DNA from: Actinophytocola sp.
GTDB taxonomy: Bacteria > Actinomycetota > Actinomycetes > Mycobacteriales > Pseudonocardiaceae
Direction of reading: 5' to 3'
Assembly (NCBI RefSeq): GCF_036378875.1
Contig: NZ_DASUVO010000140.1
Location: forward strand, 30,864-94,863
DNA length: 64,000 nt
The notes beneath the pieces were generated by a model. That model saw nothing but the letters and a program-made list of their open reading frames with translations, made no database searches and was not told the origin of the DNA. Both the position numbers and the translations under genes were made by a program. This document shows, piece after piece, positions 38,238 through 64,000 of the stretch (positions are counted from its first letter, which is position 1; the number at the start of each line of letters is the position of its first letter).

Positions 38238-38241
38238 TCGG

Positions 38242-40962: not shown

Positions 40963-41030
40963 CGCTCGAACCCCGCGACCGGTTGACCGGAACCGCCGGG
41001 CCGGCGTACGAGAAACCGGATTTCGGGCAC
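40959..41030 (-). pseudogene. Collapsed remnant of an MSMEG_0570-family (NitG-like) gene
   Basis: AGGAG RBS + [28 protein letters not shown] (23 aa). It matches the family N-terminus as I recall it (MPExxFxVRWPDG), the CYSPS core is missing, and the ATGA overlap with the next gene is kept. Confidence 0.7.
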
Positions 41031-41116
41031 CGCGTCTCCTCTGTCGGAGTTTCTCGGTGAAGACGGCCGAAGAAACTCCGGCAGCGTTGGCGGACCTGAC
41101 CGCGAAACCCATTCCA

Positions 41117-44385: not shown

Positions 44386-44417
44386 CGTTGTCCTCTCGTA
44401 GCACGACGATTGGATCG

Positions 44418-44441
44418 TGACTTGAACACTCGTCCAAGTCA
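44418..44441. promoter_or_regulatory. TetR-type operator, copy 1: TGACTTGAAC-N4-GTCCAAGTCA
   Basis: Near-perfect palindrome in the 72-bp gap between the divergent acylase and TetR starts. Confidence 0.75.
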
Positions 44442-44457
44442 AGGGCAGGATGGCGCA

Positions 44458-48577: not shown

Positions 48578-48608
48578 ACCGCCAACCCTAGAACCGCGTG
48601 CGAACGGT

Positions 48609-49490: not shown

Positions 49491-50560
49491 CGGTCCTCCT
49501 CACGGTCGCCCGCCACCACGAGCCCTTCCTCGGCGACCTCCCGCACCGCGGCCATCGCCTCGGGCGTGAGGGCCTGGTCGAAGAGCGCGCGTGCGGTGGC
49601 GTACCGCTCGGCGGCGGCCGGGACGTCGGCCTGGTCCTCGGCCAGCCTGGTGCCCAGCTCCTCGATCGACAGGTATGCCCTGGCCCGCGCCTCCCGCAGC
49701 CCTTCCCTGGTCTCGCGCCTGCGCAGCGCCCACCGCAGGTACAGGACGAGCAACATCGCCACGACCGTGGCAGCCGCCGCGACCAGCGTGACGACGATCG
49801 CGGAGCCGGCCAGGTCGACCTTCTCCGGCCGCGGCAGGTCGTACACCGGCCGAGCGGGCGGTTCGGTCATCCGGTCCAGGACGGCGGTCACCACGTCCGT
49901 CGAGCGACCGCGGTTGAGGAGGACCGGGCCGTAGGCGGCGTTCCGCGCGTGTTCGGCCCGATCGGCGCCGGGGCCGGCGAACTCGAGCCAGGCCCCGTGC
50001 GCGACGACGACCAGCTCGCCGGGGAAGCGAGCCGCCAGCCTGCCCGCGTAGTCGACGTACACCGGCCCCATCGGGACCCGCGCCAGGCGAACGCCGTCGC
50101 GGGGTTGGCTCACGGTCAACTGGTCGAGCTGCGCGTCCGTGGCGGGCACGGTCGCCGGTGACGCCTGTTCGCCGAGCACGACGCCGGTGACGTCACCGTA
50201 GGCGAGGACCTGCCGCAGAACCCGCTCGTCGGCCGTCGCGAGTGGCCGCTCGCTTTCGGTGCCCTCGTACCGCTCGATCCACAGCCCTTCGACAACCGTG
50301 AGCGCGACTCCGGTGTCGCCGGCCCACTTCAGGAGGGCGACCAACCCCGGCGGCAGACCGGACTGGGGAGCGAGCAGCACCCTCTCGTCGTCGGGCACCC
50401 TGGCCACATCGACGGTGGTGACCGCACCGGGCAGCCGCACGACCCGGTTCTGGGAGAGCTGGTCGATCAGCTGCTGTGGATCCGGCGGTTGGGCGGTGGC
50501 CGGTGAGCCGGACAGCAGCAGGCACACGGCCGCCGCGAGCACCGCTCCCACCGTTCGCAT
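49487..50560 (-). CDS. Hypothetical secreted, C-terminally anchored protein
   Basis: Signal peptide MRTVGAVLAAAVCLLLSGSPATA; TM IVVTLVAAAATVVAMLLVLYL followed by RWALRRRE. Confidence 0.7.
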   Translation of the reverse strand: MRTVGAVLAAAVCLLLSGSPATAQPPDPQQLIDQLSQNRVVRLPGAVTTVDVARVPDDERVLLAPQSGLPPGLVALLKWAGDTGVALTVVEGLWIERYEGTESERPLATADERVLRQVLAYGDVTGVVLGEQASPATVPATDAQLDQLTVSQPRDGVRLARVPMGPVYVDYAGRLAARFPGELVVVAHGAWLEFAGPGADRAEHARNAAYGPVLLNRGRSTDVVTAVLDRMTEPPARPVYDLPRPEKVDLAGSAIVVTLVAAAATVVAMLLVLYLRWALRRRETREGLREARARAYLSIEELGTRLAEDQADVPAAAERYATARALFDQALTPEAMAAVREVAEEGLVVAGDREEDR

Positions 50561-50788
50561 GGCGGGCAGCTTCGCACGCAAGTGCCTGCCCTGTCTGGCA
50601 AACGGCCGCTCCCGTACGACCGGAAAGTTCCGTTCCGGAGGACTCCGCCCCAACCTGAACATTCTAGGGACACAACGAGATCTCGAAGACGGGACGGGTG
50701 ATCAGCGTCACGGTCGGGCCCCCTATCATGGCGCCGTCTACTCCCCCTCCTCCCCCGAGTTCGTCGCTCTCGAAAGGGCTCAACGACC

Positions 50789-51773: not shown

Positions 51774-52982
51774 CTACCCCTCCGCCAAGAGCGGCCAGAT
51801 CGCGGCCGCCACCGCCAGCAGGCGATCGTCGTCACCGGAGGGAGTGGACAGCAGCACGCTGCCACGCAGACCACCCGGCAGCGCGCCATGCGGCACGGCG
51901 ACCCCCGGCAGACCGAAGTAGCTCAACAACATCGTCGTGCGCAGAGCCCGGCGGTTGGCCGTCGCCATCACGTCCAGGTCCGCCAGCAGCGGAGCAACCG
52001 CCGGCGCCGGGTCACGGACCGTCGGGCACAGCAGGACCGCGCCAGCCAACTCCTCGACCAACCGGTCCCGCAACCCCGCCTGCGCGGCACGCACCACCGG
52101 CTCACCGGCCGCGTTGAAGTCGGCCAACCGACGCAGCACCAAGGGATCCACATCGCTCGGCCCGGCCAAGAAGTGGCCATGCCGCGCATACGCCTCGGCG
52201 ACGGCCAGCGTGCCGTGCCGGTCCATCAGCTCCTGCGCTTCGCCCAACGACGGCAGCGGGCGGTGGTCGATCCGCACACCGGACCGCGCCAACGCGGCCA
52301 GCGTGTCCTCGAACGCGGTCCGGACGGCCGGGTCGCAGTCGTCCAGCAGCTCGCCGGTCGGGACCACACACCGGAACTCCGTCTCATGCGACTCGACCGG
52401 CGCGCCACGCAGCCACGCGTCGGCACGCACCGCGGCCGCGACGTCATGCGTGAACACACCGATCGTGTCGAGACTCGGCGCGAGCGGCTGCATGCCGGTG
52501 CGGTCGTAGCGATCGATGCTCGCCTTGTACCCCACCAACCCGCAGAACGCCGCCGGCACACGCACCGAACCGGAGGTGTCCGTGCCGACCGCCAGGTCCA
52601 CGATCCCGTCCGCCACCGCCACGGCCGACCCGGACGACGAGCCGCCCGGCACCCGGTCCGGCGCCAGCGGGTTGACCGGATTGCCGAAGTGCGGGTTCAA
52701 CCCCAGCCCCGAGAAAGCGAACTCGCTCTGGTTCGTCTTCCCGACACACACCGCGCCGCGGGCTGCCAGGTTCCGCACGATCGGCGCGTCCTCCGTTGCC
52801 ACCGGCACGTCGCGACGAGTCGCGGAACCGTTGGTGGTGCGTGTGCCGGCGACGTCGAACAGGTCCTTCCACGCGACCAGCGGGCCCGGTCCTTCCCGGC
52901 GCGCTCGCTCCGCCGTGACCGTGATGAACGCGGCCGACTCCCGCGCCCTGCGCAATGCCTCCTCGATCCGGTCAGACATCAT
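51774..52982 (-). CDS. Amidase-signature family amidase (short N-terminus)
   Basis: AWKDLFD (Lys), PGGSSSGS (cis-Ser) and GTDTSGSVRVPA (Ser nucleophile). Confidence 0.9.
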   Translation of the reverse strand: MMSDRIEEALRRARESAAFITVTAERARREGPGPLVAWKDLFDVAGTRTTNGSATRRDVPVATEDAPIVRNLAARGAVCVGKTNQSEFAFSGLGLNPHFGNPVNPLAPDRVPGGSSSGSAVAVADGIVDLAVGTDTSGSVRVPAAFCGLVGYKASIDRYDRTGMQPLAPSLDTIGVFTHDVAAAVRADAWLRGAPVESHETEFRCVVPTGELLDDCDPAVRTAFEDTLAALARSGVRIDHRPLPSLGEAQELMDRHGTLAVAEAYARHGHFLAGPSDVDPLVLRRLADFNAAGEPVVRAAQAGLRDRLVEELAGAVLLCPTVRDPAPAVAPLLADLDVMATANRRALRTTMLLSYFGLPGVAVPHGALPGGLRGSVLLSTPSGDDDRLLAVAAAIWPLLAEG

Positions 52983-53090: not shown

Positions 53091-54257
53091 CTATCGGAGA
53101 ATGAGCGGGAGCGACTGCAGACCGGTGAAGTCCGGCGAGGGCTGGGAGACCGGCGGTCGTTCCGGGTCGGTGCGCAGGTCAGGGTAGCGGTCGTACAGGA
53201 TGTTCAGCGCGACCCGGCCCTCCAGCCGGCTCACCGACGTGCCAAGGCAGAAGTGCACACCGAGCCCCCAGGACAGGTGCAGGTTGATGTCGCGGTTCGG
53301 GTCGAACTCGTGTGGGTTCGGGAAGATGCGTTCCTCACGGTTGGCCGCGCCGATCCACACCGAGACGAGCCGGTCGCGCGGGATCGCGTGCCCGCTGACT
53401 TCCGTGTCGACCATGGTCGCCCGGATGATGCGCTGGAACGGCGGGTACATCCGCAGCGACTCCTCGAGCGCTCCCGGCAGCAGTGTCCGGTCGTCGAGGA
53501 TCCGCTTGGCCTGCACGGGGTTGATGTCCAGCGCCAGCACGGTGTTGGCGAGCATCGACGCGGTGGTGACGTGCCCGGCGATCAGCATCAGGTTGGCGAA
53601 GTTGACGACCTGGGCGTCGGTGAGCCGCTCGCCGTCCACCTCCGCCTGGACCAGGGCAGTGAGCATGTCGTCGCGCGGGGAGCGCCGACGGTCGGTGGTG
53701 TGTTCGAGTAGGTAGGCACGCAACTGCTTGATGTCGGCGACGCGCTGCTCCATCGCGGCCGCCACGTCCTCCAGCGCGTCCTTGTCGCTGTTGAGGTGCT
53801 TGGTCATCAGCTGCTTGAACCAGACCCGGTCGGACCCGGGAACGCCGAGCATCTCGGCGATCACGATCACCGGCAGCGGGTAGGCGAGCGACTCCACCAG
53901 ATCCATCCGGTCCCCGTCGCCGGCCTCGTCCAGCAGCTCGTGGGTCAGCGCGGCGACGCGCGGCTCCAGGTCGGCGACCATCCTCGGCGTGAACCCGCGG
54001 TTGACGATCTTGCGCAGCTGGGTGTGCTCGGGTGGATCGAGCCGCACCATGTTCCCGTCGGTCAGTTCCGTCGCGAACTTGAACTTGCTCGGCATCAGCC
54101 GCTGGGAGTTGCTGGAGAAGGTCGCGGGATCCAGCATGATCTTCTGCGCGTCGTCGTATCCGTACACGTGGTGGATTCGCGTGTCCTCGTCGAACCGGAC
54201 CTTCGCGGGCGGCAGCTCCCCGCGCATCCAGACGTGCTGCTCATGCGTGTCGAACAC
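53091..54257 (-). CDS. Cytochrome P450, EryK/CYP113-like macrocycle-tailoring type
   Basis: LDPPEHTQLRK, AYPLPVIVIAEMLG, IAGHVTT, EESLR and WGLGVHFCLG heme motif. Confidence 0.9.
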   Translation of the reverse strand: MFDTHEQHVWMRGELPPAKVRFDEDTRIHHVYGYDDAQKIMLDPATFSSNSQRLMPSKFKFATELTDGNMVRLDPPEHTQLRKIVNRGFTPRMVADLEPRVAALTHELLDEAGDGDRMDLVESLAYPLPVIVIAEMLGVPGSDRVWFKQLMTKHLNSDKDALEDVAAAMEQRVADIKQLRAYLLEHTTDRRRSPRDDMLTALVQAEVDGERLTDAQVVNFANLMLIAGHVTTASMLANTVLALDINPVQAKRILDDRTLLPGALEESLRMYPPFQRIIRATMVDTEVSGHAIPRDRLVSVWIGAANREERIFPNPHEFDPNRDINLHLSWGLGVHFCLGTSVSRLEGRVALNILYDRYPDLRTDPERPPVSQPSPDFTGLQSLPLILR

Positions 54258-54370
54258 GGGACTCCCTCGGTTTCCGCGACGTCCTTGCCCGGACAGACAG
54301 GAAGTTACCGGCGCCGGACATGACAGGGCATCACCAAAGCTTGTCGTTCTGTCTCCGGTGCCGGCCGGGA

Positions 54371-54388
54371 CTACCCGCGTTGGGGATG
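54371..54388 (+). promoter_or_regulatory. RifZ-type (LAL/LuxR) binding site, exact CTACC-N8-GGATG
   Basis: CTACC CGCGTTGG GGATG in the divergent P450/acyltransferase intergenic region. Confidence 0.75.
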
Positions 54389-54459
54389 GCCTCGGCGAAC
54401 GGCGTGGGCAAGCCTGCTAACGACGGTGCGAGAACCAGAACCCTGACTGGAGGCAATTC

Positions 54460-55677
54460 GTGACGACAGTTGGAGTTTGGCGTGCGCTGTCACCAACCGA
54501 GAAGATCCAGGCCGGGCGAGAGTCCTACATCGGGTTCTCGGTGCGCGCCGCAGGCCGACTGGATCTTGGTGCCCTGACGACTGCCTACGAGGCCGTGTGT
54601 CGCGCCTATCCGCAGTTCGCGGCCCGGCTGGAAGCCGGCGACGACGGACCTGTTTTCACGGCGTCCGACGCCTTGCCGGACGTCCGTGTCCACGACGGAG
54701 ACCCCGAACGCCCGTTGTCCGGTGTGGACGTGGCTCAGCACCGGGCGTTGAGCGCGCTCAACGTCGTACGCGACGGCGACGACGTGAGTGTGTGTCTGGT
54801 AACCCATCACGGCATCGCCGACGCCGACCACGCCATCGCTGTGTTCGCCGCACTGTGGTCCTGCTACACCGATGTCGTGGCCGGCCTGCCCGTGGACCTG
54901 CCCAGTCATCCGTTTCCCAGGTCGTTGGAGGACCTGCTGGCCGAGCGCGGCATCCATGGTTCTGCCCCCACCGAAGCGGGTGTGGCGGTCCAACCGGTAT
55001 CCGAACAGCCCGCGGTCGTCCGGCACGTGGTCCAACATCGCCTGACGGTGGCGGAGACGACGGCACTGGCGGAACTCGGCCACCGTGAGCACGTGACGAT
55101 CAACGGCTTGTTGTCGGGCGCCATACTTCTCGCCGAGGCCGAGATTCGCGGGCTGCCGGTGACCGACCTGGTGTACCGGTTCACGGTGAACCTCCGCGGT
55201 CATCTCACTCCGCGGGTCGGTCCGACCGAGGGTACGAACGTGCTCGGCGGCGCGGGTTTCCAGGCCACCAACGGAATGGAACCCACCGCGGTGTCGATCG
55301 GTCGCGCGGTCGGTGAGCAGCTACGCGCGGGGCTGGCCGACGGTTCCATCCAGCGCAGCCTCCTCGACCTCGTCGCGCAGTCGAGGCCCGGCGCGAAACC
55401 GTGGGATCCGAGCAAGGCCCCCGCCATTGTCAGCATGATGAACTGGGGACCGATACCACCCATGCGCACACCGGAAGGTCTACTGTTGACCAACTTCCGC
55501 TCCGCCTCCCGCATCAGGGAGACCTCGGCCATGGGTGGCTACGTGGTGAGCACCTTCGACGGACGCACAGGTATCGATCTCACGTGGCCCGTCGACGATC
55601 CGGAACTGCCGAGGCGCCTCGACTGCCTGCGTGAACAGTTGGGCCGTTTGCGGTTGACCGACAAGCTTAACGGCTGA
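54460..55677 (+). CDS. PapA5-type acyltransferase resembling rifamycin C-25 O-acetyltransferase Rif-Orf20
   Basis: RALSPTE...LTTAYEAVCRAYPQFAARL N-terminus, HHGIADA (HHxxxDG-like) catalytic motif and FTVNLRGHL. Confidence 0.8.
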   Translation: MTTVGVWRALSPTEKIQAGRESYIGFSVRAAGRLDLGALTTAYEAVCRAYPQFAARLEAGDDGPVFTASDALPDVRVHDGDPERPLSGVDVAQHRALSALNVVRDGDDVSVCLVTHHGIADADHAIAVFAALWSCYTDVVAGLPVDLPSHPFPRSLEDLLAERGIHGSAPTEAGVAVQPVSEQPAVVRHVVQHRLTVAETTALAELGHREHVTINGLLSGAILLAEAEIRGLPVTDLVYRFTVNLRGHLTPRVGPTEGTNVLGGAGFQATNGMEPTAVSIGRAVGEQLRAGLADGSIQRSLLDLVAQSRPGAKPWDPSKAPAIVSMMNWGPIPPMRTPEGLLLTNFRSASRIRETSAMGGYVVSTFDGRTGIDLTWPVDDPELPRRLDCLREQLGRLRLTDKLNG

Positions 55678-55680
55678 GGC

Positions 55681-57111
55681 GTGCCGATGTCCGCCGCCGG
55701 ACTGCTGACCACGACCGACGACGACCTGCTGCACCGGTTCACGGAGTCGGCCAACACACAGGACCGGGTGCTGGTCCCGACGCCCTCGTTCCGCAGCTGG
55801 TTCGCCGAACGCGTGCAGGCCAACAGCTATCGGGTCACGCGAGTTCCGTTCGGCGGGCTGTCCGGCTGGCGGTTCCAACCGGACACCGGGAACCTCGTGC
55901 ACGACAGCGGCCGGTTCTTCACGATCGAAGGACTGTCGGTGAACACCGACCACAGCGAGCGCGCGCACTGGACGCAGCCGATCATCCGGCAGCCGGAGAT
56001 CGGCATCCTCGGCATTCTGGTCAAGGAGTTCAACGGTGTCCTGCACTGCCTGATGCAGGCCAAGATGGAGCCGGGCAACGTCAACCTGACCCAGCTCTCC
56101 CCCACCCTGCAGGCCACCCGCAGCAACTACACCCGGGTACACAAGGGAAAGCCCATTCCGTACCTGGAGTACTTCATGGCACCGTGGCGTGGCCGGGTGC
56201 TGGTCGACGTGCTGCAGTCCGAGCAGGGCGCGTGGTTCCTGCACAAGCGCAACCGCAACATGGTCATCGAGGTCACCGACGACATCCCGGTGCTCGAGGA
56301 CTTCTGCTGGCTGACGCTGGCGCAGCTGCACGAGCTGCTGCACGTCGACAACCTGGTCAACATGGACTCGCGGACGGTGCTGTCCGGCATCCCGTTCGCC
56401 GCGCCGGTCGACCGGCCGTCCATGCTCGACGAGGACTCGTTCCGCGGCGCGCTCCTGCGGTCCCTGGCCGAGCGCAAGGGCGCGCTGCACGAGCTGCCAT
56501 CGTTGCTGAGCTGGTTCACCGAGGCCAAGACCAAGCACAGCCTTGACCAGCAACGGATCCCGCTCAACCAGGTGTCCAGGTGGCACGCCACCGACGAGCA
56601 CATCAGCCGTGACGACGGCAAGTACTTCACGGTGATCGGCGTCGACGTCCGTGCGAGCAACCGCGAGGTGGCGCACTGGACGCAGCCGATGCTGGCGCCG
56701 GTCGGCCAGGGGCTGCTCGCCTTCCTTGCCAAGCGGATCGGTGGCGTGCTGCACGTGCTCGTCCAGGCCCGCACGCAGGCGGGCACGTTCGACGTGATCG
56801 AGATGGCCCCGACCGTGCACTGCACGCCGGAGAACTACGCTGGCGCCGAGCCGCCGCCGTACCTACGAGAGGTGCTGGAGGCCCCACCCGAGGCGATCAA
56901 GCACGACGTCGTGCACTCGGAGGAGGGCGGCCGCTTCCACCACGCGGAGAACCGCTACCTGGTCGTCGAGGTCGGTGACGACTTCCCCGTCGAGGTGCCA
57001 CCGGACTTCATCTGGATGACCGCGCGGCAGGCCACCGATCTGGTGCGGTACAGCAACTACTTCAACGTCGAGGCACGCAGCCTGCTGACGTGCCTGCACA
57101 CCCTGTGGTGA
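55681..57111 (+). CDS. NDP-4-keto-6-deoxyhexose 2,3-dehydratase (EryBVI/OleV/Rif-Orf18 family)
   Basis: LVHDSGRFF, WTQPIIRQPEIGILG, LMQAKMEPGN, QLSPTLQATRSNY, LQSEQGAWFLHKRNRN and HSEEGGRF. Confidence 0.95.
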   Translation: MPMSAAGLLTTTDDDLLHRFTESANTQDRVLVPTPSFRSWFAERVQANSYRVTRVPFGGLSGWRFQPDTGNLVHDSGRFFTIEGLSVNTDHSERAHWTQPIIRQPEIGILGILVKEFNGVLHCLMQAKMEPGNVNLTQLSPTLQATRSNYTRVHKGKPIPYLEYFMAPWRGRVLVDVLQSEQGAWFLHKRNRNMVIEVTDDIPVLEDFCWLTLAQLHELLHVDNLVNMDSRTVLSGIPFAAPVDRPSMLDEDSFRGALLRSLAERKGALHELPSLLSWFTEAKTKHSLDQQRIPLNQVSRWHATDEHISRDDGKYFTVIGVDVRASNREVAHWTQPMLAPVGQGLLAFLAKRIGGVLHVLVQARTQAGTFDVIEMAPTVHCTPENYAGAEPPPYLREVLEAPPEAIKHDVVHSEEGGRFHHAENRYLVVEVGDDFPVEVPPDFIWMTARQATDLVRYSNYFNVEARSLLTCLHTLW

Positions 57112-57161
57112 GCCGGACGCGCGAAGAAGATCGCCGCCGATAGTCTGATGAGGAATCGGTG

Positions 57162-57182
57162 AACCGTTGCCGCACAACGGTT
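57162..57182. promoter_or_regulatory. Perfect inverted repeat AACCGTTG-N5-CAACGGTT upstream of the multicopper oxidase
   Basis: aaccgttg ccgca caacggtt, about 35 bp before the oxidase ATG. Confidence 0.45.
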
Positions 57183-57217
57183 GTACTCCCATGAGAAAAC
57201 GCAGGAGAAAATACCTG

Positions 57218-59197
57218 ATGGATGATTCCGTCGACCGTCGAACCTTCCTCGCCTCGGCCGTGCTCGGGTCCGCGGGCGTCGTGGCGGGCGTGAGCCTGCT
57301 CGGTGCGAGTGCCCCGGGTGCGACGGCCTCGGCGGCGACAGGCCGCGGACGATTAGCACCGTCCGCGGCGCCGAACTTCGGTCTCACCAAGTTCCTCGAC
57401 GCGCTGAGGATTCCGCCGGCGATCCGGTCATCCTCGCGACAGAACCTGGACGATCTCACGATCACGATGACCAATGCGCGGATACGGCTGCACTCGCAGC
57501 TGCCCGAGACCACGGTGTGGGCCTACGAGGGACAGTTCCCCGGCCCGACCATCGAGGTGCGTAGCGGCAGGCGGCTGCGGGTCGCGTGGACCAACGAGCT
57601 CGAGGGCACGGTCCCGCTCGTGGCGGTGCGGGCGCCGTTCGCGCAGCCGACACCGGCGAACGTGCCCGGCTACCGCAACCCGGACGGCAGCCTGCCCGCC
57701 GGGGTCGAGCTGATCGACGGTGTCGCCGAACTGCCGCCGTGGAACGTCGTGCACCTGCACGGCGCGCTGACGAACGGCGGCAACGACGGCTGGGCGCACA
57801 ACGGCATGCTGCCGGGGAGCACGCAGCTCACCGAGTACCCGAACCGCCAGGCGGCGACGGCACTCTGGTACCACGACCACGCGATGGCCGTGACGCGCTT
57901 CAACGTGTTCGCCGGTCTGGCCGGCATGTACCTGATCCGGGACGACGAGGAGGACGCGCTCGGACTCCCGGGCGGTGACCACGAGATCCCGCTGATCATC
58001 GCCGACCGCAACCTGGACACCGACCCCGCGACCGGCGCGCTCACCGGTCAACTGCTGTTCAAGTTCCAGTACCTGCCAGCGAACGGCATAGCTGCCCCCG
58101 TCACCGGCCCGTTCACCCTCGTCAACGGCGTCATCTGGCCGCACCTCGACGTCGAGAAGCGCTGGTACCGCTTCCGCGTGCTCAACGCGGCGAACGCCCG
58201 GTTCTTCCGTCTCAACCTGGTCGACGAGGCGGGCACCGTCCAGAACGACGCGGTCCGGATCGCGGGCACGGACTCCGGCCTGCTGCCCGCCCCGGCGCCG
58301 ATGCCCGCGGGCGGGCTGACACTCGCCCCGGCCGAGCGGGCCGACCTGCTGATCGACTTCAGCCGGTTCCCGGGGCAGCGGCTGCGTCTCGTCAACACCG
58401 GTGCCACGGTCGAGCCGGACATCATGGAGTTCCGCGTCGGGAACCAGGGCCAGCCCGACCCGTTCCAGTTGCCGGCCCGACTGTCCACATCGTACGTCCG
58501 ACTGGCACATGGCACGACCGTGCCGGAGGACCACGACGAGGTGTTCGTGGCGACGACCTCTGCCGGTGTGGCCGGCCGAGCGCACCCGGAGATGTGGGAG
58601 CTGACGGAGATCACCGACCCGGACGAGCTGCCGGAGCAGTTCCCTGCGGAGGGGGTCATCCAGCTCACCGACCCCGCGACGGGAAACGTGCGAACGTTCC
58701 GGAAGGTCGCGCGCCTGTTCGACGACACGACGACGATCTTCATCGACCGAGGCCGGTGGGTGGTGTGGAACCTGCTCCAGCTCGGCGGGGCCCCGCACCC
58801 GACGCACATCCACATGGCGCGGTTCCAGCTGCTGACCCGGCGGACCTTCACCGACCTGACGGCTTTCGACATCGCGGCCGGCGGCACCACCCGGCCGCTG
58901 CCCGCACCGAACGACGGCCCGCCGATCGAGAAGTACGAGGAGGGCTGGAAGGAAACCTTCAACCTGCGGCAGGGTGAGTGGATCACGGTCGCCGGCCAGT
59001 TCGAGGGCGCGACCGGCGAGTTCATGTACCACTGCCACATCCTCGACCACGAGGACGAGGGCATGATGCGCCCCTTCGTCGTACACCCCGCCGAGGTGGC
59101 CCGGTTCCACATGCACTCGGGTGGCTCCAACCACGGCGGGCATTCAGCCGCCTCCAGCAACACCGCGCCCTCGAGCGGCCACGGTGGGCACTCGTAA
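57218..59197 (+). CDS. Tat-exported multicopper oxidase (PhsA/CotA-like) with a His-rich tail
   Basis: DRRTFL twin-arginine signal; all four Cu motifs (VHLHG, WYHDH, HPTHIH, YHCHILDHEDEGMM); AGGAGA RBS. Confidence 0.92.
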   Translation: MDDSVDRRTFLASAVLGSAGVVAGVSLLGASAPGATASAATGRGRLAPSAAPNFGLTKFLDALRIPPAIRSSSRQNLDDLTITMTNARIRLHSQLPETTVWAYEGQFPGPTIEVRSGRRLRVAWTNELEGTVPLVAVRAPFAQPTPANVPGYRNPDGSLPAGVELIDGVAELPPWNVVHLHGALTNGGNDGWAHNGMLPGSTQLTEYPNRQAATALWYHDHAMAVTRFNVFAGLAGMYLIRDDEEDALGLPGGDHEIPLIIADRNLDTDPATGALTGQLLFKFQYLPANGIAAPVTGPFTLVNGVIWPHLDVEKRWYRFRVLNAANARFFRLNLVDEAGTVQNDAVRIAGTDSGLLPAPAPMPAGGLTLAPAERADLLIDFSRFPGQRLRLVNTGATVEPDIMEFRVGNQGQPDPFQLPARLSTSYVRLAHGTTVPEDHDEVFVATTSAGVAGRAHPEMWELTEITDPDELPEQFPAEGVIQLTDPATGNVRTFRKVARLFDDTTTIFIDRGRWVVWNLLQLGGAPHPTHIHMARFQLLTRRTFTDLTAFDIAAGGTTRPLPAPNDGPPIEKYEEGWKETFNLRQGEWITVAGQFEGATGEFMYHCHILDHEDEGMMRPFVVHPAEVARFHMHSGGSNHGGHSAASSNTAPSSGHGGHS

Positions 59198-59211
59198 CCA
59201 CTAACACAACG

Positions 59212-59248
59212 ACCGACCCGCAGTGCCCATGGGGCGCTGCGGGTCGGT
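59212..59248. terminator. Bidirectional hairpin terminator
   Basis: 17-bp stem ACCGACCCGCAGTGCCC / GGGCGCTGCGGGTCGGT (one G-T pair) with a 3-nt loop, between the convergent oxidase and P450 genes. Confidence 0.8.
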
Positions 59249-59271
59249 TCGGTCCTGGTCGGCGTACGCCT

Positions 59272-60534
59272 TTATGGTGCGTCCCAGGTGATCGGCAGTT
59301 CCTGCACGCCATAGGCGAGCATGTCGGGGCGCAGGGGGACCTCCTCTGGCGGCACCGTGAGGCGAAGATTGGGCAGGCGTCGCAACAGTTCGACGTAGCC
59401 GACCGCCAGCTCCATCCGGGCCAGTTGCTGGCCGAGGCACTGGTGCACGCCGTGGCCGAACGCCATGTGTGAGGTCCGCACCCGGTTCAGGTCCAGCTTG
59501 TCCGGCTCCTTCCAGTGCTCACTGTCCCAGTTGACGGCCAGCAGCGAGATCACCACGGTCGAGCCGGCCGGGATGTGCTCGCCGCCGAGTTCCAGGTCCT
59601 CCTTGGGGAACCGGAAGACTCCGGTGTTGCTGACCGACAGGAAGCGCAGCAGCTCCTCGACCGCGTCGCCGACGCGGGACGGGTCGTCGCGCAGCATGGC
59701 GAGTTGCTCGGGGCGCTGCAGCAACACGAAAATGCCCAGCCCCAACATTCTCGCCGTGGTTTCGAAGCCGGCGATGAGCACCAGGTTGATCATATTGATC
59801 AACTCGTCGTCGGTGAGCGCCGGATCGGCCCCTGCGTGGTGGATCAGGCCGGAGATGATGTCGTCGACCGGGTTCTCGCGCTTGTCCGTCACCAGCCGCT
59901 GTATGAACGCGCGCAGGGCTTCGTAGTTCTCCTGCGCCACCGTGATCGGCACGTCCATCTGCATCAGTGCCGCCGCGCGTTCCTGGAACTCCGCCCGGTC
60001 CTCGTAGCGCACCCCGAGCATCTCGCAGATCACCAGCGAGGGCACCGGGAACGCGAAGTCCGCCATCAGATCGGCGGTGTTTCCCTTGGCCAGCATGGCA
60101 TCCAGCTGCGCGGTGACGATCTCCTCGATCCGTTCGCCGAGTATGCGGATCCGGCGGACCGTGAACTGCCCGGTGAGCAACTTGCGGTAGCGGGAGTGCT
60201 CCGGCGGATCCATGTTGATGAACGACCCGGCGCGCGCCTTGTCGTCCCGCATCTTCGCCTTGGTTTCCTCGGACAGCTGTTTGAACCTGGGGTGGTAGGT
60301 GAACCGGTCGGCGGAGAACCGCGGGTCCGACAGCACCGCACGAGCCTCTTCGAACCCGGACACCAACCAGAACGGGTCACCGGTGGGCAGCGCCGCCTTG
60401 GTGATCGGGGTTCGCTCGTTCTGGTTCGCCAGGGCCGACGGCAGCGTGAACGGGTCTTCGCGGTAGAAGAACTCGAGGGGAAGCGGTGCGCGGAGTGATT
60501 CGCCGGCTGGCGGATTCTCGGTCTTCTGGGTCAC
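59272..60534 (-). CDS. rif16: Cytochrome P450 (CYP105 clan), Rif16-like
   Basis: IAGFETT, EELLR and FGHGVHQCLG. Distinctive segments (REDPF, YHPRFK, RDDKARAGSFINMDPPEH, LIHHAGADPALTDDELIN, C-terminal WDAP) match my recall of A. mediterranei Rif16. Coupled directly downstream of a split transketolase. Confidence 0.8.
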   Translation of the reverse strand: MTQKTENPPAGESLRAPLPLEFFYREDPFTLPSALANQNERTPITKAALPTGDPFWLVSGFEEARAVLSDPRFSADRFTYHPRFKQLSEETKAKMRDDKARAGSFINMDPPEHSRYRKLLTGQFTVRRIRILGERIEEIVTAQLDAMLAKGNTADLMADFAFPVPSLVICEMLGVRYEDRAEFQERAAALMQMDVPITVAQENYEALRAFIQRLVTDKRENPVDDIISGLIHHAGADPALTDDELINMINLVLIAGFETTARMLGLGIFVLLQRPEQLAMLRDDPSRVGDAVEELLRFLSVSNTGVFRFPKEDLELGGEHIPAGSTVVISLLAVNWDSEHWKEPDKLDLNRVRTSHMAFGHGVHQCLGQQLARMELAVGYVELLRRLPNLRLTVPPEEVPLRPDMLAYGVQELPITWDAP

Positions 60535-61460
60535 CGCGAAGCCTCCCCGTCCTCAAGGAAGCCGGTGATCGACTCGGCCAGGCTCGCGGCGTCCAGCCCG
60601 TGCAGCCGGTCGTGGTCCGCGGCACTTCCATAGGCGCGCACCTCCTGGTCCCGCCGGACACCGAGTGATCGCAGCCGGTGCGGCACGTCGCCGAGCGCCT
60701 CGGCCACCTCGTGCGCGGAGGTCCCACGCAGATAGGGCTCGACCATCACCACGTTCGGCGCCGATGCCACCACCGCCGAGCGCAGACCCGCGTGGTCGAA
60801 CGGCCGGACCGTGGACGCGTACAGCACTGTCACGTCCATAGTGGACGTCGCGGCGAGGACGGCCGCCAGCACCGGACCGACCGCGACCACCACACCGGCG
60901 CCACCCTGGCGCAGCACGGTGAACCCGTCCGAGAGCGGAATCGCCTCGCTGTGGACCTTGTCGGACAGTCGCAGGTAGACCCGGCCGTCACCGGCGATCG
61001 CCTTCCGCAGCAGCGGCTCGACCTCGTCCTCGTGGCCCGGCACGTGCACGGTCCAGCCGGGCACCGTGTCGAGCAGCGCCACGTCGCCGGGCGCCTGGTG
61101 GGTCCGGCCCCTCGGTATGTCGTCGTAGGAACTGCCGATGCCGACCAGCACGGCGCCGACGTCCTGGTGTCCGAGGCTGATCTTGATCTGCTCGAACGGC
61201 CGCTCGACCAGGAACGGCGCGTAGGTGTGCACCACCGGCCGGTACCCGGCCAGCGACAGGCCGCCCGCGATCCCGATCATCGCCTGTTCACGGATCCCGA
61301 CGTTGACCACCCGCTCCGGATACCGGGCCCGCGCCTCGTTGAAGAACGGTGACGAGATGTCCGCGGTCACCAGGGCCAGCTTGGAGTTGGTGGACAAGGA
61401 CTCGACCACGGTCTCGACGAAGACGAGACGCATCAGCTTTCGGGTCACCTGAGTGGTCAC
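60531..61460 (-). CDS. rif15b: Split transketolase, pyrimidine-binding/C-terminal subunit (Rif15b-like)
   Basis: VNVGIREQAMIG, HTYAPFLVERPFEQIK, THQAPGD and DRLHGLD; its stop overlaps the P450 start. Confidence 0.8.
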   Translation of the reverse strand: MTTQVTRKLMRLVFVETVVESLSTNSKLALVTADISSPFFNEARARYPERVVNVGIREQAMIGIAGGLSLAGYRPVVHTYAPFLVERPFEQIKISLGHQDVGAVLVGIGSSYDDIPRGRTHQAPGDVALLDTVPGWTVHVPGHEDEVEPLLRKAIAGDGRVYLRLSDKVHSEAIPLSDGFTVLRQGGAGVVVAVGPVLAAVLAATSTMDVTVLYASTVRPFDHAGLRSAVVASAPNVVMVEPYLRGTSAHEVAEALGDVPHRLRSLGVRRDQEVRAYGSAADHDRLHGLDAASLAESITGFLEDGEASR

Positions 61461-61533
61461 GACTGGTCCGCCTCCCCGGATTCAGATGTGTTGGTCACGT
61501 TGGGGAAGGCACGTCCTGTTGACACAGGAAGTG

Positions 61534-62223
61534 TCATGCCATTCCCCCCGCGCTGTCGTGGATCTCCGCGACCACGGCCTGTGGCCGCCCGTCGCGTGCC
61601 TGGGTCAGCGCCCGGTACAGCTCGTCGTGGTCGCGACCGTCCACAGTGGTCGTGAGCCAGTTCTCCGACTCGAAGCGCCTGGCGATGCCACCCGGCCAGC
61701 CGAGGCTCGCCGAGGAGTTGTCGATCACGATCGCGGTGAGCTGGTCGAGCCCGAGCCGCCCGGCGATCGCGATCGCCTCGTGGTTGCTGCCCTCGTCGAA
61801 CTCACCGTCGCCCAACATCACGACGACCCGGGCGCTGCGGCCGTCGGCACGCAGCCCGAGCACGGTCCCCACGCCGAGCGGGAGCCCTTGCCCGAGGGAG
61901 CCACTGCTGATCTCGACCCCGGGCACCAGCACCCGGTCCGGGTGCAGACCGAGCGGCGAGCCGAGCTTGGCCCAGGTGTTCAACTCGTCCGGGTCGATGA
62001 AGCCCTTCGCGGCGAGCACCGCGTAGTAGGGCATCGGCGCGTGGCCCTTGGAGAGATAGAACCGGTCCCGGTCGGGATCGTCGATGTTCGCCGGCGACAC
62101 GTTGAGCACGCGGTCGTAGAGCACCCAGATCGCGTCCTGCGTCGACGTCAGCGACAACATGTGCGCGTTGCCCCCGACCATCCTGTCGATGAAGCCTTGT
62201 AACGTCTGTTCTGTCGTCTGCAC
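61534..62223 (-). CDS. rif15a: Split transketolase, ThDP-binding N-terminal subunit (Rif15a-like)
   Basis: DRDRFYLSKGHA, GLHPD, SSGSLGQGL and GDGEFDEGSNHEA...VIDN ThDP motif. Start is GTG 62223 or TTG 62238. Confidence 0.8.
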   Translation of the reverse strand: MQTTEQTLQGFIDRMVGGNAHMLSLTSTQDAIWVLYDRVLNVSPANIDDPDRDRFYLSKGHAPMPYYAVLAAKGFIDPDELNTWAKLGSPLGLHPDRVLVPGVEISSGSLGQGLPLGVGTVLGLRADGRSARVVVMLGDGEFDEGSNHEAIAIAGRLGLDQLTAIVIDNSSASLGWPGGIARRFESENWLTTTVDGRDHDELYRALTQARDGRPQAVVAEIHDSAGGMA

Positions 62224-62365
62224 TGGTTCCACCTGCAACGCTTCCCGGGTTGTGGTGATCAGGCCGGCTTGCGGACCGTCAGGAGAAGTCCAGTCTTGCC
62301 CAGACCGCTCGTCCAGGACATCACCAACGTGGGTAGCGGTGGCAGGCCCCGGCACCGGCCAAGCC

Positions 62366-62383
62366 CTATCAGGTTGAGGGATG
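62366..62383 (+). promoter_or_regulatory. RifZ-type binding site, CTATC-N8-GGATG (one mismatch)
   Basis: CTATC AGGTTGAG GGATG in the divergent transketolase/glycosyltransferase intergenic region. Confidence 0.65.
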
Positions 62384-62528
62384 CTCGGCCGGTCGCCCCT
62401 TCCCTATCGTTCGAAAGCGGTGCCGTAACGCGCCCGCGCACGCCAGGGCGCGCGAGGCGGCGACACCGACGAGGTGGACGACGAGGTCGTAGCGAGCCAC
62501 CATCCGCACGGACTGCCGCCAGGAGGAC

Positions 62529-63683
62529 TTGTTGAAGGTCATCATTCTTTCCGGGATCACCCCCTCGACGTTCTTCGCTCATGTCTCGCTCGCAACGGCC
62601 CTGCGCGACGCCGGGCACCAGGTGATGGTGACCGCCGCCGCCGACGACGTGATCCCGAGCATCGCGGCGGCCGGGCTCCCCGCCCTACCGGTCATGGAGC
62701 CGGGACTGACCCGAGAGCAGATCTTCGCCGAGGCCGGGCTGGCACGGGTGCCGGAGGACGCCGTCGAACGTGAGTACATGGCGGGTCGGTGGTTCGCGCT
62801 CATCGAGACCAAGCCGCTCGACGCCCTCCTGGCGTTCGCCAAGGACTGGCGCCCGGATGTCGTCGTCGGGGGCATGCTGGCCTATGGCGCGCCGCTGCTG
62901 GCGGCCCGTCTCGGGGTCCCGTACGTGCGGCAGGCCTGGGACATCCACAACCCGAAACTGTTCGACGCGGGGGCGGCGTTCCAGTTGCGGGAGGCGTTGG
63001 CGGAGCTGGGGCTGGACGGCCTTCCCGAACCCGACATGATGATCGAGGTCATGCCGCCGAGCCTGCGCACACCGGAGACCAAGCCCGCGCAGGCGATGCG
63101 GTGGATCGCGGGCAACTCGCAGTGTCGCCTGGAACCGTGGATGTACACCAAGGGTGCGGACACCCGGATCGGCGTCACCATCGGGACGGGAGTGGCGGAC
63201 TACAACCAGTACGACTTCGTCGAGGGCATCGTCAAGAACATCGCCACCCTCGACGTCGAGGTGGCGGTGGCGGTCCCCCAGGCCGCCGTCCCCGTCCTGC
63301 GGGAACGCCTGGACGAGAACGTCCCGGTGGGCTGGGCCCCGCTCGACGTCCTCGCACCCACCTGCGATGTCCTGGTGCACCAGAGTGGTGGCAGCACCAT
63401 GATGACGGCGTTGAGCTTCGGGGTGCCTCAGATCCTGCTCCCCGACGCCGGGCAGTTCCGCCAGGGCGACATGGCACGCCGCCTCGTCGAGGCCGGCGCC
63501 GCACTGACACTCTCCCACGAGCAGGCCACGACCGAGATCATCGCTGAGACCTGCCAAGAGATGATCTCCAACCCGAGCTACGCCGCGGCCGCGGCCGGGC
63601 TCGCCAAGGAGATCGCCGCGCTGCCCCTGCCATCCGAGGTGGCCAGGCGCATCGAGTGGCTCGTCCACGAAACGTCCGCATGA
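62529..63683 (+). CDS. GT1 natural-product deoxysugar glycosyltransferase (UrdGT2/EryCIII-like)
   Basis: AGGAGG RBS + TTG; LATALRDAGHQV, WRPDVVVG, GWAPLDVLAPTCDVLVHQSGGSTMMTALSFGVPQILLP. Confidence 0.9.
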   Translation: MLKVIILSGITPSTFFAHVSLATALRDAGHQVMVTAAADDVIPSIAAAGLPALPVMEPGLTREQIFAEAGLARVPEDAVEREYMAGRWFALIETKPLDALLAFAKDWRPDVVVGGMLAYGAPLLAARLGVPYVRQAWDIHNPKLFDAGAAFQLREALAELGLDGLPEPDMMIEVMPPSLRTPETKPAQAMRWIAGNSQCRLEPWMYTKGADTRIGVTIGTGVADYNQYDFVEGIVKNIATLDVEVAVAVPQAAVPVLRERLDENVPVGWAPLDVLAPTCDVLVHQSGGSTMMTALSFGVPQILLPDAGQFRQGDMARRLVEAGAALTLSHEQATTEIIAETCQEMISNPSYAAAAAGLAKEIAALPLPSEVARRIEWLVHETSA

Positions 63684-63709
63684 CACCGGAACGGACACAG
63701 GAGGTGGCG

Positions 63710-64000
63710 ATGCGGTTCAACGCTTTGCGGGTCGCGGTCGCGGCGATGGTGGCCCTGTCCTTGGCTGTGCCGGCTCAGGCCAGCCAGCGGCAGGAGGAGC
63801 CGGTTTCGCTGGTGGGCAAGAAGATCCTGTTGGCCAACGACGACGGCGTCCAGGCGGCGAACCCCAACGGATCGGACGGCCGGGGCCTTTACGTGCTTCG
63901 GCGGGCGTTGTGTCGTGCTGGCGCCGACGTGGCGATCGTCGGACCATGGACACAACAGAGCGGACGAAGCCGGGCCACGTCGGGGGCCGGCGTCGTGTCC
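63710..64000 (+). CDS. surE: Secreted SurE-like acid phosphatase/nucleotidase, truncated by the window end
   Basis: Manual translation: MRFNALRVAVAAMVALSLAVPAQA (signal peptide)...KILLANDDG...QQSGRS, the SurE NDDG and QSG motifs. Confidence 0.75.
   Translation, partial: MRFNALRVAVAAMVALSLAVPAQASQRQEEPVSLVGKKILLANDDGVQAANPNGSDGRGLYVLRRALCRAGADVAIVGPWTQQSGRSRATSGAGVVS

Follow-up and report, generated by a model that had tools for sequence, protein, structure and literature searches.

The last 11 kb of a 64-kb Actinophytocola window: probable distal end, without PKS genes, of a cluster for a kanglemycin-family rifamycin congener

The window (i.e., the whole 64,000-nucleotide stretch of DNA analyzed) ends with an 11-kb block forming the outer end of a cluster, in which nine genes were identified based on their Pfam and NCBIfam domain content. 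All nine ORFs are full length, apart from the SurE-like gene, which is cut by the end of the window; their GC3 values range from 0.79 to 0.93, and inspection of the catalytic motifs showed that these are intact. The genes and the two divergent intergenic regions are as follows.

53,091–54,257, minus strand: cytochrome P450, Kng28 ortholog, last gene of the cluster (Pfam p450)
54,258–54,459, no strand: divergent intergenic region of 202 nt separating the Kng28-like P450 from the acyltransferase operon (gene coordinates)
54,460–55,677, plus strand: PapA5-like acyltransferase, Rif20 ortholog (Rif-Orf20, Kng37; Pfam PapA_C, 6e-51)
55,681–57,111, plus strand: NDP-hexose 2,3-dehydratase, Kng27 ortholog (Pfam Hexose_dehydrat, 2e-163, two stretches)
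57,167–59,197, plus strand: phenoxazinone-synthase-type multicopper oxidase, Kng31 ortholog (Pfam Cu-oxidase_2 and Cu-oxidase_3)
59,272–60,534, minus strand: cytochrome P450, Rif16 ortholog (CYP105G1, Kng41; Pfam P450 and identity)
60,531–61,460, minus strand: transketolase C-terminal subunit, Rif15B ortholog (Pfam Transket_pyr and Transketolase_C)
61,534–62,223, minus strand: transketolase N-terminal (ThDP-binding) subunit, Rif15A ortholog (Pfam Transketolase_N)
62,224–62,531, no strand: divergent intergenic region of 308 nt between the transketolase/P450 operon and the glycosyltransferase (GT) operon (gene coordinates)
62,532–63,683, plus strand: deoxysugar GT, Kng26 ortholog (Pfam EryCIII-like N and C domains)
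63,710–64,000, plus strand: SurE-family 5'/3'-nucleotidase-like protein, Kng25 ortholog, first 97 codons (NCBIfam SurE, 2e-6 on the fragment)

The genes named in an earlier sequence-only reading were all confirmed in place and intact by their Pfam domains and catalytic motifs, and three genes had been missed: the second P450 (53,091–54,257), the multicopper oxidase (57,167/57,218–59,197), and the SurE-like gene (63,710–64,000).

The N- and C-terminal transketolase subunits show 73.3 and 74.2% identity to Rif15A and Rif15B, respectively. The ORF of the N-terminal subunit reaches 62,355; the GTG at 62,223 gives a 229-aa protein of the same length as its homologs, with the GDG...N motif (residue 138) in the same register as in Rif15A. 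The translational coupling proposed between the transketolase and P450 genes is present: the GTGA at 60,531–60,534, read from the sequence, includes both the stop codon of the C-terminal subunit and the overlapping start codon of the P450. The latter shows 74.2% identity to Rif16 of Amycolatopsis mediterranei S699 and 71% to its A. vancoresmycina homolog. Its best matches are all P450s from rifamycin-type clusters, the best named one being AXL06639.1 (uncultured bacterium, Peek deposit, 85%), and 5ysm/5ysw ranked first in the PDB search with 696.6 bits, the next match scoring 409.6 bits. Together with the 73–74% identity of the transketolases to Rif15A/B, these matches leave the rif-type assignment standing. 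The heme cysteine is intact in both P450s. In the Rif16-like P450, R84, N108, T260, F308, F310, and C366 are kept, whereas S76A, A196V, V303S, P305T, I307V, and T407A are changed; since six of the 13 substrate-contact residues of Rif16 are replaced, two of them among its four hydrogen-bonding residues, this step may involve another substrate or lead to another outcome. The acyltransferase shows 65.6% identity to A. mediterranei Rif20, exceeds the cut-off of NCBIfam NF006787 (462 vs. 396 bits), carries the HHxxxDA catalytic motif as HHGIADA at residue 116 and, by analogy with Rif20 (Qi, 2018, PMC6002545), is predicted to O-acetylate C-25. The idea that a rif-type tailoring block lies here at the edge of a cluster is thus borne out by identities of 73–74% for Rif15A/B and Rif16 and 66% for Rif20.

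The sugar genes resemble those of the kanglemycin (kng) cluster. The dehydratase shows 89.9% identity to Kng27 and only 54.7% to Rif18, and is predicted to catalyze the step that first commits the pathway to the 2,6-dideoxy K-sugar, digitoxose, in line with the roles assigned to the K-sugar genes by Peek et al. (2018, PMC6175910, Supplementary Figure 23 and Table 3). The GT, the ORF of which starts at 62,529 and the database copy at the TTG at 62,532 (383 aa), shows 81.3% identity to Kng26 (WP_004562640.1) and 65.5% to a Rif-Orf7-type paralog of A. ultiminotia; a neighbor-joining tree places it in the Kng26 clade, apart from the Rif-Orf7 clade. Its best PDB matches are the olivosyl-transferases 4rie, 4rig, and 2p6p, and it is predicted to move the K-sugar onto the C-27 hydroxyl. 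The Kng28-like P450 aligns over 388 aa, at 86.9% identity, with the P450 encoded beside kng27 in A. vancoresmycina; its identity to Rif16 or Rif13 does not exceed 35%. The heme motif WGLGVHFCLG and the I-helix motif AGHVTT are intact, and since the best PDB match is 4e2p, a CYP107B1, this enzyme is not a CYP105. Kng28 (listed as kng10 in Supplementary Tables 6–8 of Peek et al., 2018, PMC6175910) was predicted by these authors to form the methylenedioxy bridge of the K-sugar along with a sugar O-methyltransferase. The SurE-like gene starts at the ATG at 63,710 and runs off the end of the window; the fragment shows 74% identity to both Kng25 and the SurE of A. ultiminotia, each of which adjoins a GT in its own cluster, and the Sec-type signal (...AVPAQA|S) preceding the KKILLANDDG motif is kept in both homologs.

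The multicopper oxidase probably starts at the ATG at 57,218 (659 aa, vs. 676 aa from 57,167). It scores 709 bits with NCBIfam PhsA, i.e., below the equivalog cut-off of 950, and matches the phenoxazinone synthase 3gyr in the PDB with 520 bits. Identity amounts to 70.2% with Kng31, for which no rif homolog is listed in Table 3 of Peek et al. (2018, PMC6175910), and to 79.5% with an Actinophytocola homolog. Both homologs share the twin-arginine signal DRRTFLAS, and the oxidase has the copper motifs HLH, HDH, HPTHIH, and HCH.

The complete gene order is SurE-GT-TK-TK-P450-oxidase-dehydratase-acyltransferase-P450 (TK, transketolase). The same order occurs in two clusters from soil eDNA, RifCon6 (orf45–53) and RifCon12 (orf39–46, but without SurE), where the GT has 383 aa, the P450 approximately 421–426, the oxidase approximately 656–658, the dehydratase 474–476, and the last P450 386–388 aa (Peek et al., 2018, Nat Commun 9:4147, PMC6175910, Supplementary Tables 6 and 7; GenBank MH480516–MH480581). 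The JGI soil contig carrying AXL06639.1 (the 85% P450 homolog) is identical to the block in both order and strands. The block is therefore not new in kind, since this terminal gene order was published from soil DNA in 2018; the protein identity to RifCon-type proteins amounts to only about 81–90%, which points to a different organism and a different cluster. Positions 53,091–64,000 very likely represent the distal end, on the side away from the PKS, of a cluster for a kanglemycin-family rifamycin congener with the RifCon6/RifCon12 architecture from an uncultured soil Pseudonocardiaceae; all the functions in the block were assigned by orthology.

As noted previously, the 64-kb window harbors no PKS or AHBA genes: the largest ORF does not exceed 1222 aa, most of the other called ORFs were scanned against Pfam and NCBIfam and gave unrelated functions only, and tblastn searches with rifJ, kngM, kngN, rifR, rif36 (LuxR), Kng21–24, and Kng30 yielded no match at E ≤ 1e-5. 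This absence over 64 kb, the export signals on two of the products, and a left flank which differs in each of three relatives (an amidase in the window, glyoxalase and bPH_2 in the JGI contig, NUDIX in Actinophytocola) would also suit an orphan tailoring island that lacks its own PKS, modifying or detoxifying the rifamycins of neighbors by glycosylation, acylation, or C-4 conversion. We regard this as very unlikely. Whenever the sequence or published gene table of a relative extends past the GT-side genes, it places AHBA genes, PKS genes, or both next to the block on its GT/SurE side (the two shortest relative contigs end no more than one or two genes from the GT); an NDP-deoxysugar dehydratase would be of little use if the other steps of its pathway were missing; and no known rifamycin-resistance family is represented (Rgt 33 and Rox 44 bits, vs. 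cut-offs of 800). In the relatives, OMT-AKR-4KR come next past GT/SurE, followed in L086 by LuxR, the rif5 P450, a thioesterase, and ACC-beta (with rifJ inside the block), and in A. ultiminotia and A. vancoresmycina by the AHBA genes ROK, HAD, and GFO, which begin less than 10 kb from the GT on the SurE side. In the RifCon6 and RifCon12 tables the last P450 (388 aa) ends the cluster, with the AHBA and PKS genes situated toward SurE (Peek et al., 2018, PMC6175910). The earlier expectation that PKS and AHBA genes lie beyond 64,000 is thus indirectly supported by the layouts in A. vancoresmycina, A. ultiminotia, RifCon6, and RifCon12; we predict that this region also holds the regulators and the K-sugar genes not seen in the window, in addition to the AHBA operon and the PKS.

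A canonical rifamycin B/SV-type cluster, merely shuffled, with the dehydratase and GT as silent Rif18 and Rif7 and a non-glycosylated product, is highly improbable. In its favor, the block has orthologs of Rif15A/B, Rif16, and Rif20 (66–74% identity) from the rif cluster of A. mediterranei S699/U32 (rifamycin B/SV), this rif cluster also contains a 2,3-dehydratase gene, rif18, and Table 3 of Peek et al. (2018) pairs kng26 with a rif7 GT. However, the dehydratase is far closer to Kng27 than to Rif18 (90 vs. 55%), as the GT is to Kng26, in the clade of which it falls, than to the Rif-Orf7-type paralog (81 vs. 65%); assignment of this pair as silent Rif18 and Rif7 was rejected on these grounds. 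The direct comparison confirmed that the order is unlike that of A. mediterranei (rifJ-rif16-rif15B-rif15A-rif14-rif13-rifR-rif20-rif19-rif18-rif17) and corresponds instead to RifCon6/RifCon12: rif14, 13, R, 19, and 17 are missing from the block, which adds the Kng28-type P450, the multicopper oxidase (Kng31 type), and SurE (Kng25 type), none of which has a rif counterpart, and its sugar genes are of the Kng and not the Rif type. Features shared with A. mediterranei are the ThDP motif and most of the Rif16 active-site residues, including R84. The lack of a Rif14-type methyltransferase gene after the transketolase, unlike in A. mediterranei, fits a free C-27 hydroxyl. With the kng cluster of A. 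vancoresmycina NRRL B-24208/DSM 44592 the block shares orthologs of Kng25, 26, 27, 28, and 31 at 70–90% identity as well as of the Rif15/16/20-type genes, and the same GT-SurE adjacency, which is followed by OMT-AKR-4KR in kng. The K-sugar genes of kng are contiguous (4KR-3KR-OMT-SurE-GT-dehydratase-P450) and its Rif15/Rif16 genes lie far off, adjoining rifJ, whereas in the window the GT is separated from the dehydratase by the TK-TK-P450-oxidase module, and the dehydratase from the Kng28-like P450 by the acyltransferase. The rearrangement and extra enzymes reported in the sequence-only reading are therefore present, but they are those of a published kanglemycin-related terminal architecture (Peek et al., 2018, PMC6175910); since the sugar genes are moreover K-sugar genes, the new congener proposed there is unproven, and a sugar-bearing, kanglemycin-family rifamycin relative is to be expected.

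The least probable reading, an assembly chimera with an artefactual junction at approximately 53.09 kb or a decaying remnant with no longer functional genes, might be suggested by the probable metagenomic origin of the source contig and that of its nearest relatives, by the presence of at most 12% of the contig's 31-mers in any public run, and by the start of the adjoining amidase approximately 45 residues short of its family profile, but it conflicts with the nine full-length ORFs with intact motifs and a GC3 of 0.79–0.93, with the continuous composition across the junction, and with the independent JGI contig, where the cluster likewise stops at the 388-aa P450.

The kanglemycin-family block falls into four transcription units: the Kng28-like P450 (leftward); the acyltransferase, Kng27 dehydratase, and Kng31 oxidase (rightward); and a divergent pair consisting of Rif15A, Rif15B, and the Rif16-like P450 (leftward) and the Kng26 GT, Kng25 SurE, and genes beyond (rightward). 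The 54,258–54,459 region presumably carries promoters; a consensus sigma-70 scan of this region gave no match, as expected in the case of a high-GC actinomycete. Judging from characterized or published orthologs, the dehydratase would initiate the 2-deoxygenation of an NDP-4-keto-6-deoxyhexose, leading to NDP-digitoxose, the GT would transfer this digitoxose-type sugar to the C-27 hydroxyl, and the Kng28-like P450, along with an O-methyltransferase expected just past the window, would close the methylenedioxy bridge. The acyltransferase would acetylate C-25, and the two-subunit transketolase would add a C2 unit to the naphthoquinone C-4 carbonyl, the resulting ester then being rearranged by the Rif16-like P450 (for the enzymology of Rif15, Rif16, and Rif20, see Qi, 2018, PMC6002545); the kng tailoring roles are themselves mostly bioinformatic predictions (Peek et al., 2018, PMC6175910). 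The Tat-exported oxidase would probably convert the naphthohydroquinone into the quinone outside the cytoplasm, which is the weakest step in the scheme. It counts against the scheme that an oxidase acting outside the cell could not directly supply a transketolase located in the cytoplasm. The known kanglemycins bear no C-4 glycolate, and the function proposed above for Rif15 and Rif16 is therefore tentative for this family.

The features that set RifCon6, a full kanglemycin cluster, apart from RifCon12, which has only the K-sugar, are located outside the window. We lean slightly toward a full kanglemycin set, including an ethylmalonyl-specific AT8 and the K-acid genes, rather than a RifCon12-like cluster, since the block contains SurE, which RifCon6, RifCon10, and kng have and RifCon12 lacks, and since an ACC-beta gene follows in L086, the relative with the 92%-identical P450.

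Gene calling based on GC3, combined with Pfam and NCBIfam scans, gave nine genes in the right-hand end of the window (53091-64000), the base composition of the window (66-76% GC) being that of a high-GC actinomycete:

53091-54257, minus strand: P450
54460-55677, plus strand: PapA5-like acyltransferase
55681-57111, plus strand: NDP-hexose 2,3-dehydratase
57167-59197, plus strand: multicopper oxidase (probable start ATG 57218)
59272-60534, minus strand: P450 (Rif16-like)
60531-61460, minus strand: transketolase C-terminal subunit
61534-62223, minus strand: transketolase N-terminal subunit
62532-63683, plus strand: EryCIII-like glycosyltransferase (GT)
63710-64000, plus strand: SurE-like protein, first 97 codons

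Catalytic motifs are kept throughout this region and the products are full-length. The genes listed in the sequence-only reading were all recovered here, together with the oxidase, the 53091-54257 P450 and SurE, which had been overlooked. The translational coupling claimed between transketolase and P450 is literally true, since the C-terminal subunit's stop codon and the P450's GTG start codon overlap in a shared GTGA. Scans of 52.5-64 kb for repeats, promoters and terminators returned no more than chance would give, the cluster border bears no mobile-element signature, and neither Rfam families nor tRNAs were found anywhere in the window.

To judge from its proteins, 53091-64000 is a set of rifamycin-type tailoring genes. 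In a direct comparison with the proteins of the canonical Amycolatopsis mediterranei locus, the 59272-60534 P450 showed 74.2% identity to Rif16, the transketolase subunits 74.2% to Rif15B and 73.3% to Rif15A, and the acyltransferase 65.6% to Rif20. The Rif15A/B plus Rif16 signature of rifamycin-type clusters is thus present, with the ThDP motif and the key Rif16 residues conserved, as is the PapA5-like C-25 O-acetyltransferase of Rif20 type characteristic of these clusters, which scores above the NF006787 cut-off and carries the catalytic His motif. The matches of the 59272-60534 P450 are exclusively P450s of rifamycin-type producers or clusters (64-85% identity), from sources including Amycolatopsis tolypomycina, A. 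mediterranei, A. vancoresmycina, Micromonospora rifamycinica, M. halophytica, Salinispora arenicola, Actinomadura, and Kutzneria, and in the PDB it matched Rif16 (5YSM/5YSW) with 697 bits, as against 410 for the next P450. Since this P450 matches only rifamycin-type P450s and the transketolase subunits are so close to Rif15A/B, the assignment proposed from the sequence is not refuted by better matches to non-rifamycin P450s or generic transketolases. The chemistry invoked in its favor also agrees with the literature: rifamycin L is formed when Rif15 moves a C2 unit from a 2-ketose onto rifamycin S, Rif16 (CYP105G1) converts rifamycin L to O and B, and Rif20 acetylates C-25 (Qi et al., 2018, PMC6002545). 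The CYP105 label given to the transketolase-coupled P450 is likewise correct under the nomenclature rule (more than 40% identity to a named CYP105 member), in view of its 74% identity to Rif16, named CYP105G1 by Qi et al. (2018, PMC6002545); in the PDB ranking, two P450s of unnamed family are followed by CYP105AS1, the first family-named match, and then by other CYP105 enzymes. The 53091-54257 P450 is not a CYP105, its best PDB match being CYP107B1.

The other genes of the region are, on the basis of their sequences, Kng-like rather than Rif-like, as the comparison with the A. vancoresmycina kanglemycin (kng) locus indicates.

Table. Identity of the proteins to kanglemycin and rifamycin homologs
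Dehydratase: Kng27, 89.9%; Rif18, 54.7%
GT: Kng26 (WP_004562640.1), 81.3%; Rif-Orf7-type paralog, 65.5%
P450 at 53091: Kng28, 86.9%; rif P450s, none above 35%
Oxidase: Kng31, 70.2%; no rif homolog
SurE fragment: Kng25, 74%; no rif homolog

In a neighbor-joining tree, the GT is nested in the Kng26 clade and not in that of Rif-Orf7, and genomes with both GT paralogs have one in each; Kng26 orthologs are now numerous in public genomes. The region thus carries three markers of the kanglemycin family, namely a Kng26-clade GT distinct from Rif-Orf7, a Kng27-type dehydratase and a Kng28-type P450. Kng22, 23, 24, 27, and 28 have been assigned to the synthesis of the K-sugar, a methylene-digitoxose, and Kng26 to its transfer onto C-27, and Kng25, 28, and 31 are listed with no A. 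mediterranei homolog (Peek et al., 2018, PMC6175910). The idea that Rif-Orf17 might be a copper oxidase was discarded: the A. mediterranei gene following rif18 encodes a luciferase-like monooxygenase, and Table 3 of Peek et al. gives no rif homolog of the oxidase. A paper on the streptovaricin methylenedioxy bridge (PMC7481197) makes no mention of kng genes.

The order of the genes was compared with that of orf45-53 of RifCon6 (a kanglemycin-type cluster from soil eDNA), orf39-46 of RifCon12 (a soil-eDNA cluster with the K-sugar genes but not those for the K-acid) and a JGI soil contig. The RifCon6 cluster ends with a 4-ketoreductase (4KR), an aldo/keto reductase (AKR), a 3-O-methyltransferase (OMT), SurE (326 aa), GT (383), two transketolase subunits, P450 (426), copper oxidase (658), 2,3-dehydratase (474), acyltransferase (419) and P450 (388), and the end of RifCon12 differs only in lacking SurE (Peek et al., 2018, PMC6175910, Supplementary Tables 6, 7). 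Read from right to left, the window has exactly the RifCon6 order, SurE-GT-transketolase-transketolase-P450-oxidase-dehydratase-acyltransferase-P450, which is that expected of the kanglemycin family, with matching lengths. The best named match of the window's Rif16-like P450 (AXL06639.1, 85%) is an uncultured-bacterium protein from the RifCon deposit series; it was also found on the 21.6-kb JGI soil contig, which carries all nine genes in unchanged orientation, with unrelated genes beyond the 388-aa P450. The rearrangement claimed in the sequence-only reading is therefore real with respect to the A. mediterranei order, but it is not new, since this is the known kng-related architecture of RifCon6 and RifCon12. 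In A. mediterranei and the ERZ25039594 locus, the Rif16 end adjoins rpoB and rpoC, with only rifJ and a LuxR gene in between, whereas the neighbors of the corresponding end in the window are unrelated genes.

As had been noted previously, no PKS or AHBA genes lie in the window: its ORFs reach 1222 aa at most, the two largest encode an AfsR/SARP regulator and a penicillin amidase, and most of the other called ORFs scan as unrelated functions. The AHBA operon genes (rifG-N, RifK, rifJ) are absent from the window, as are the OMT, AKR, and 4KR genes for the K-sugar, and tblastn searches of the window with rifJ, kngM, kngN, rifR, rif36, Kng21-24, and Kng30 gave no match. In every relative examined, as well as in the RifCon tables, OMT/AKR/4KR-type genes directly follow GT/SurE, and the rest of the cluster is on the GT/SurE side in every relative whose sequence or gene table reaches beyond the GT-side genes. 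In A. vancoresmycina and A. ultiminotia, GT-SurE-OMT-AKR-4KR are followed within 10 kb by ROK, HAD, and GFO genes (rifN/M/L-type). A JGI contig (L086), the P450 of which is 92% identical to that in the window, reads GT-PNPOx-OMT-AKR-4KR-YceI-LuxR-P450-thioesterase-carboxyltransferase, with rifJ inside the block; a 6.4-kb contig whose GT is 90% identical reads GT-SurE-OMT, and in an Actinophytocola MAG, unrelated genes give way to P450-oxidase-P450-transketolase-transketolase-GT-OMT. In the tables for RifCon6 and RifCon12, this same terminal block has the PKS upstream of it (Peek et al., 2018, PMC6175910). This synteny with the relatives provides good support for taking the Kng28-like P450 as the probable left border and for the predicted continuation of the cluster beyond 64000. 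The presence of SurE, as in RifCon6, and that of an ACC-beta gene downstream in L086 weakly suggest that the cluster might be of the full Kang A type, with an ethylmalonyl AT8 and the K-acid genes (acyl-CoA carboxylase, methylmalonyl-CoA mutase, and CoA-transferase).

In the Rif16-like P450, six of the 13 substrate-contact residues of the crystallized Rif16 are replaced (S76A, A196V, V303S, P305T, I307V, T407A), and R84, I107, N108, P197, I255, T260, F308, F310, C366, and L406 are retained. All six changes are shared by AXL06639.1 and five by the Actinophytocola protein, in which residue 407 is Ser; they are not those of the A. vancoresmycina homolog, which, like that of Salinispora, retains S76 and T407. 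Because of these changes in the pocket, the substrate, and even the product, of this step may differ from those of the conversion of rifamycin L to B. To our knowledge, no C-4 glycolate occurs in the known kanglemycins.

The oxidase resembles phenoxazinone synthase (709 bits on the NCBIfam PhsA model, which is below the equivalog cut-off, and 520 bits with PDB 3GYR). The N-terminus of this Kng31-type enzyme (57167-57290) includes the Tat motif DRRTFLAS, which is kept in the oxidases of A. vancoresmycina (L088, its kng locus, 1927-3906) and Actinophytocola (L085 4720-6669). In SurE (63710-63820), the export signal, ...AVPAQA|S, forms a 35-aa extension that precedes the KKILLANDDG motif, and this signal is kept in A. 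vancoresmycina (L088 11178-12158) and A. ultiminotia (L084 11195-12172). Both the oxidase (via Tat) and the SurE-family phosphatase (via Sec) are therefore predicted to be exported, here and in the kng-family homologs; the kng literature consulted proposes no role for either the Kng31-type oxidase or the Kng25-type SurE. The oxidation of SV to S is spontaneous and faster with Cu2+, and the involvement of an oxidase "cannot be excluded" (Qi et al., 2018, PMC6002545). In the light of these remarks and of its likeness to phenoxazinone synthase, the oxidase might catalyze the oxidation of hydroquinone to quinone; being placed outside the cytoplasm by its conserved twin-arginine motif, it would act on the exported product rather than feeding the transketolase.

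The gene content, orthology, and order are direct observations, and the roles proposed here are those we infer from the orthologs. The dehydratase, along with ketoreductases expected to the right of the window, would produce an NDP-2,6-dideoxyhexose, and the GT would attach the sugar derived from it to the C-27 hydroxyl. In the window, no Rif14-type C-27 O-methyltransferase gene follows the transketolase, contrary to what occurs in A. mediterranei, which fits the idea that C-27 stays available to the sugar. The Kng28-like P450 and a sugar O-methyltransferase would close the methylenedioxy bridge, the acyltransferase would acetylate C-25, an acetyl group that Kang A retains, and the transketolase and the Rif16-like P450 would act at the C-4 carbonyl of the quinone. 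The pocket changes in the Rif16-like P450 and the predicted export of the oxidase and SurE would allow the product to be an undescribed congener of the kanglemycin family maturing partly outside the cytoplasm, with oxidation, and possibly dephosphorylation, of an exported precursor serving as a self-protection or activation step, an outcome we regard as rather unlikely.

Kanglemycins remain active against rifampicin-resistant RNA polymerases because of their K-sugar and K-acid (Peek et al., 2018, PMC6175910), which makes natural variants of the cluster a practical source for new scaffolds of the rifamycin type. The window adds one kng-like variant from an uncultured or undescribed soil member of the Pseudonocardiaceae, with proteins 70-90% identical to known ones. 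Since three complete kng-like clusters and RifCon12 have already been described and this class is stated to be frequent in soil (Peek et al., 2018, PMC6175910), the state of knowledge is unchanged: the class was known from soils and the terminal order had been published. What is new here would be a possibly undescribed congener, along with the export signals conserved in the oxidase and in SurE. The variant is of value as a lead toward recovering the full cluster, and it draws attention to three family-conserved genes, those for the oxidase and SurE, both predicted to be exported, and that for the divergent Rif16.

The remainder of the window carries several other genes. An island of rifamycin resistance was considered and rejected, the MGT-family GT at 3708-5072 scoring 33 bits on Rgt and the monooxygenase at 21765-23672 scoring 44 bits on Rox, with cut-offs of 800. 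The former (plus strand) is a macrolide-family (MGT) glycosyltransferase (410 bits versus a cut-off of 260), not of the rifamycin-inactivating Rgt type; its true start is probably later than called, since a patatin-like gene (2890-3873) ends within the ORF. A 1207-aa AfsR/SARP-family regulator (24855-28478, minus strand; Trans_reg_C, BTAD, AAA_16) occupies the part of the window that is richest in GC (75-76%). Its neighbors are an MFS transporter (23654-24817) and a fusion of an FAD monooxygenase with a DinB/MDMPI_N domain (about 21765-23672), which does not belong to the Rox rifampin monooxygenases. A complete MSMEG_0567-0572-type ("Nit1C"-like, nitrogen-starvation) operon (34115-41112, minus strand), unrelated to ansamycin genes, encodes a flavin oxidoreductase (TIGR04046, 650 bits), an amidohydrolase, an MSMEG_0572 protein (TIGR04044), a radical SAM protein (TIGR04043), a GNAT-AIR-synthase-like fusion (TIGR04045 plus TIGR04050) and two carbon-nitrogen hydrolases.

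An amidase gene (51774-52982, minus strand) follows the last gene of the cluster on the same strand, 108 nt downstream. Its product is about 45 residues short at the start, aligning from position 52 of 455 of the family profile, and the frame is closed just upstream by the stop region of the P450; this may be a scar of cluster insertion, or simply a variant with a short N-terminus. The large penicillin-amidase-family protein (41239-44595, minus strand) has a fused C-terminal F5/8 type C (discoidin) domain, and its hydrophobic N-terminal segment suggests that it is secreted. Two adjacent LysR-type genes (15575-16465 and 16906-17394, minus strand) are nearly identical over their first 60 or so residues (VELRDIEIFL.LAEELHFGRTAERLH...), and the second, in which the family-like sequence is lost past about 120 residues, looks like a frameshifted or truncated duplicate. 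Three ORFs at 47447-50662 (minus strand) have no Pfam match, and one of these calls is probably wrong, since two of them overlap by about 490 nt. A gap in the frame plot at 20483-21738 (minus strand) hides a gene whose similarity to class I methyltransferases is weak (33%). The conserved flavoprotein at 6533-8263 has matches at 91-94% with metagenomic proteins only, the best named ones (89%) being those of Actinophytocola algeriensis and several Amycolatopsis.
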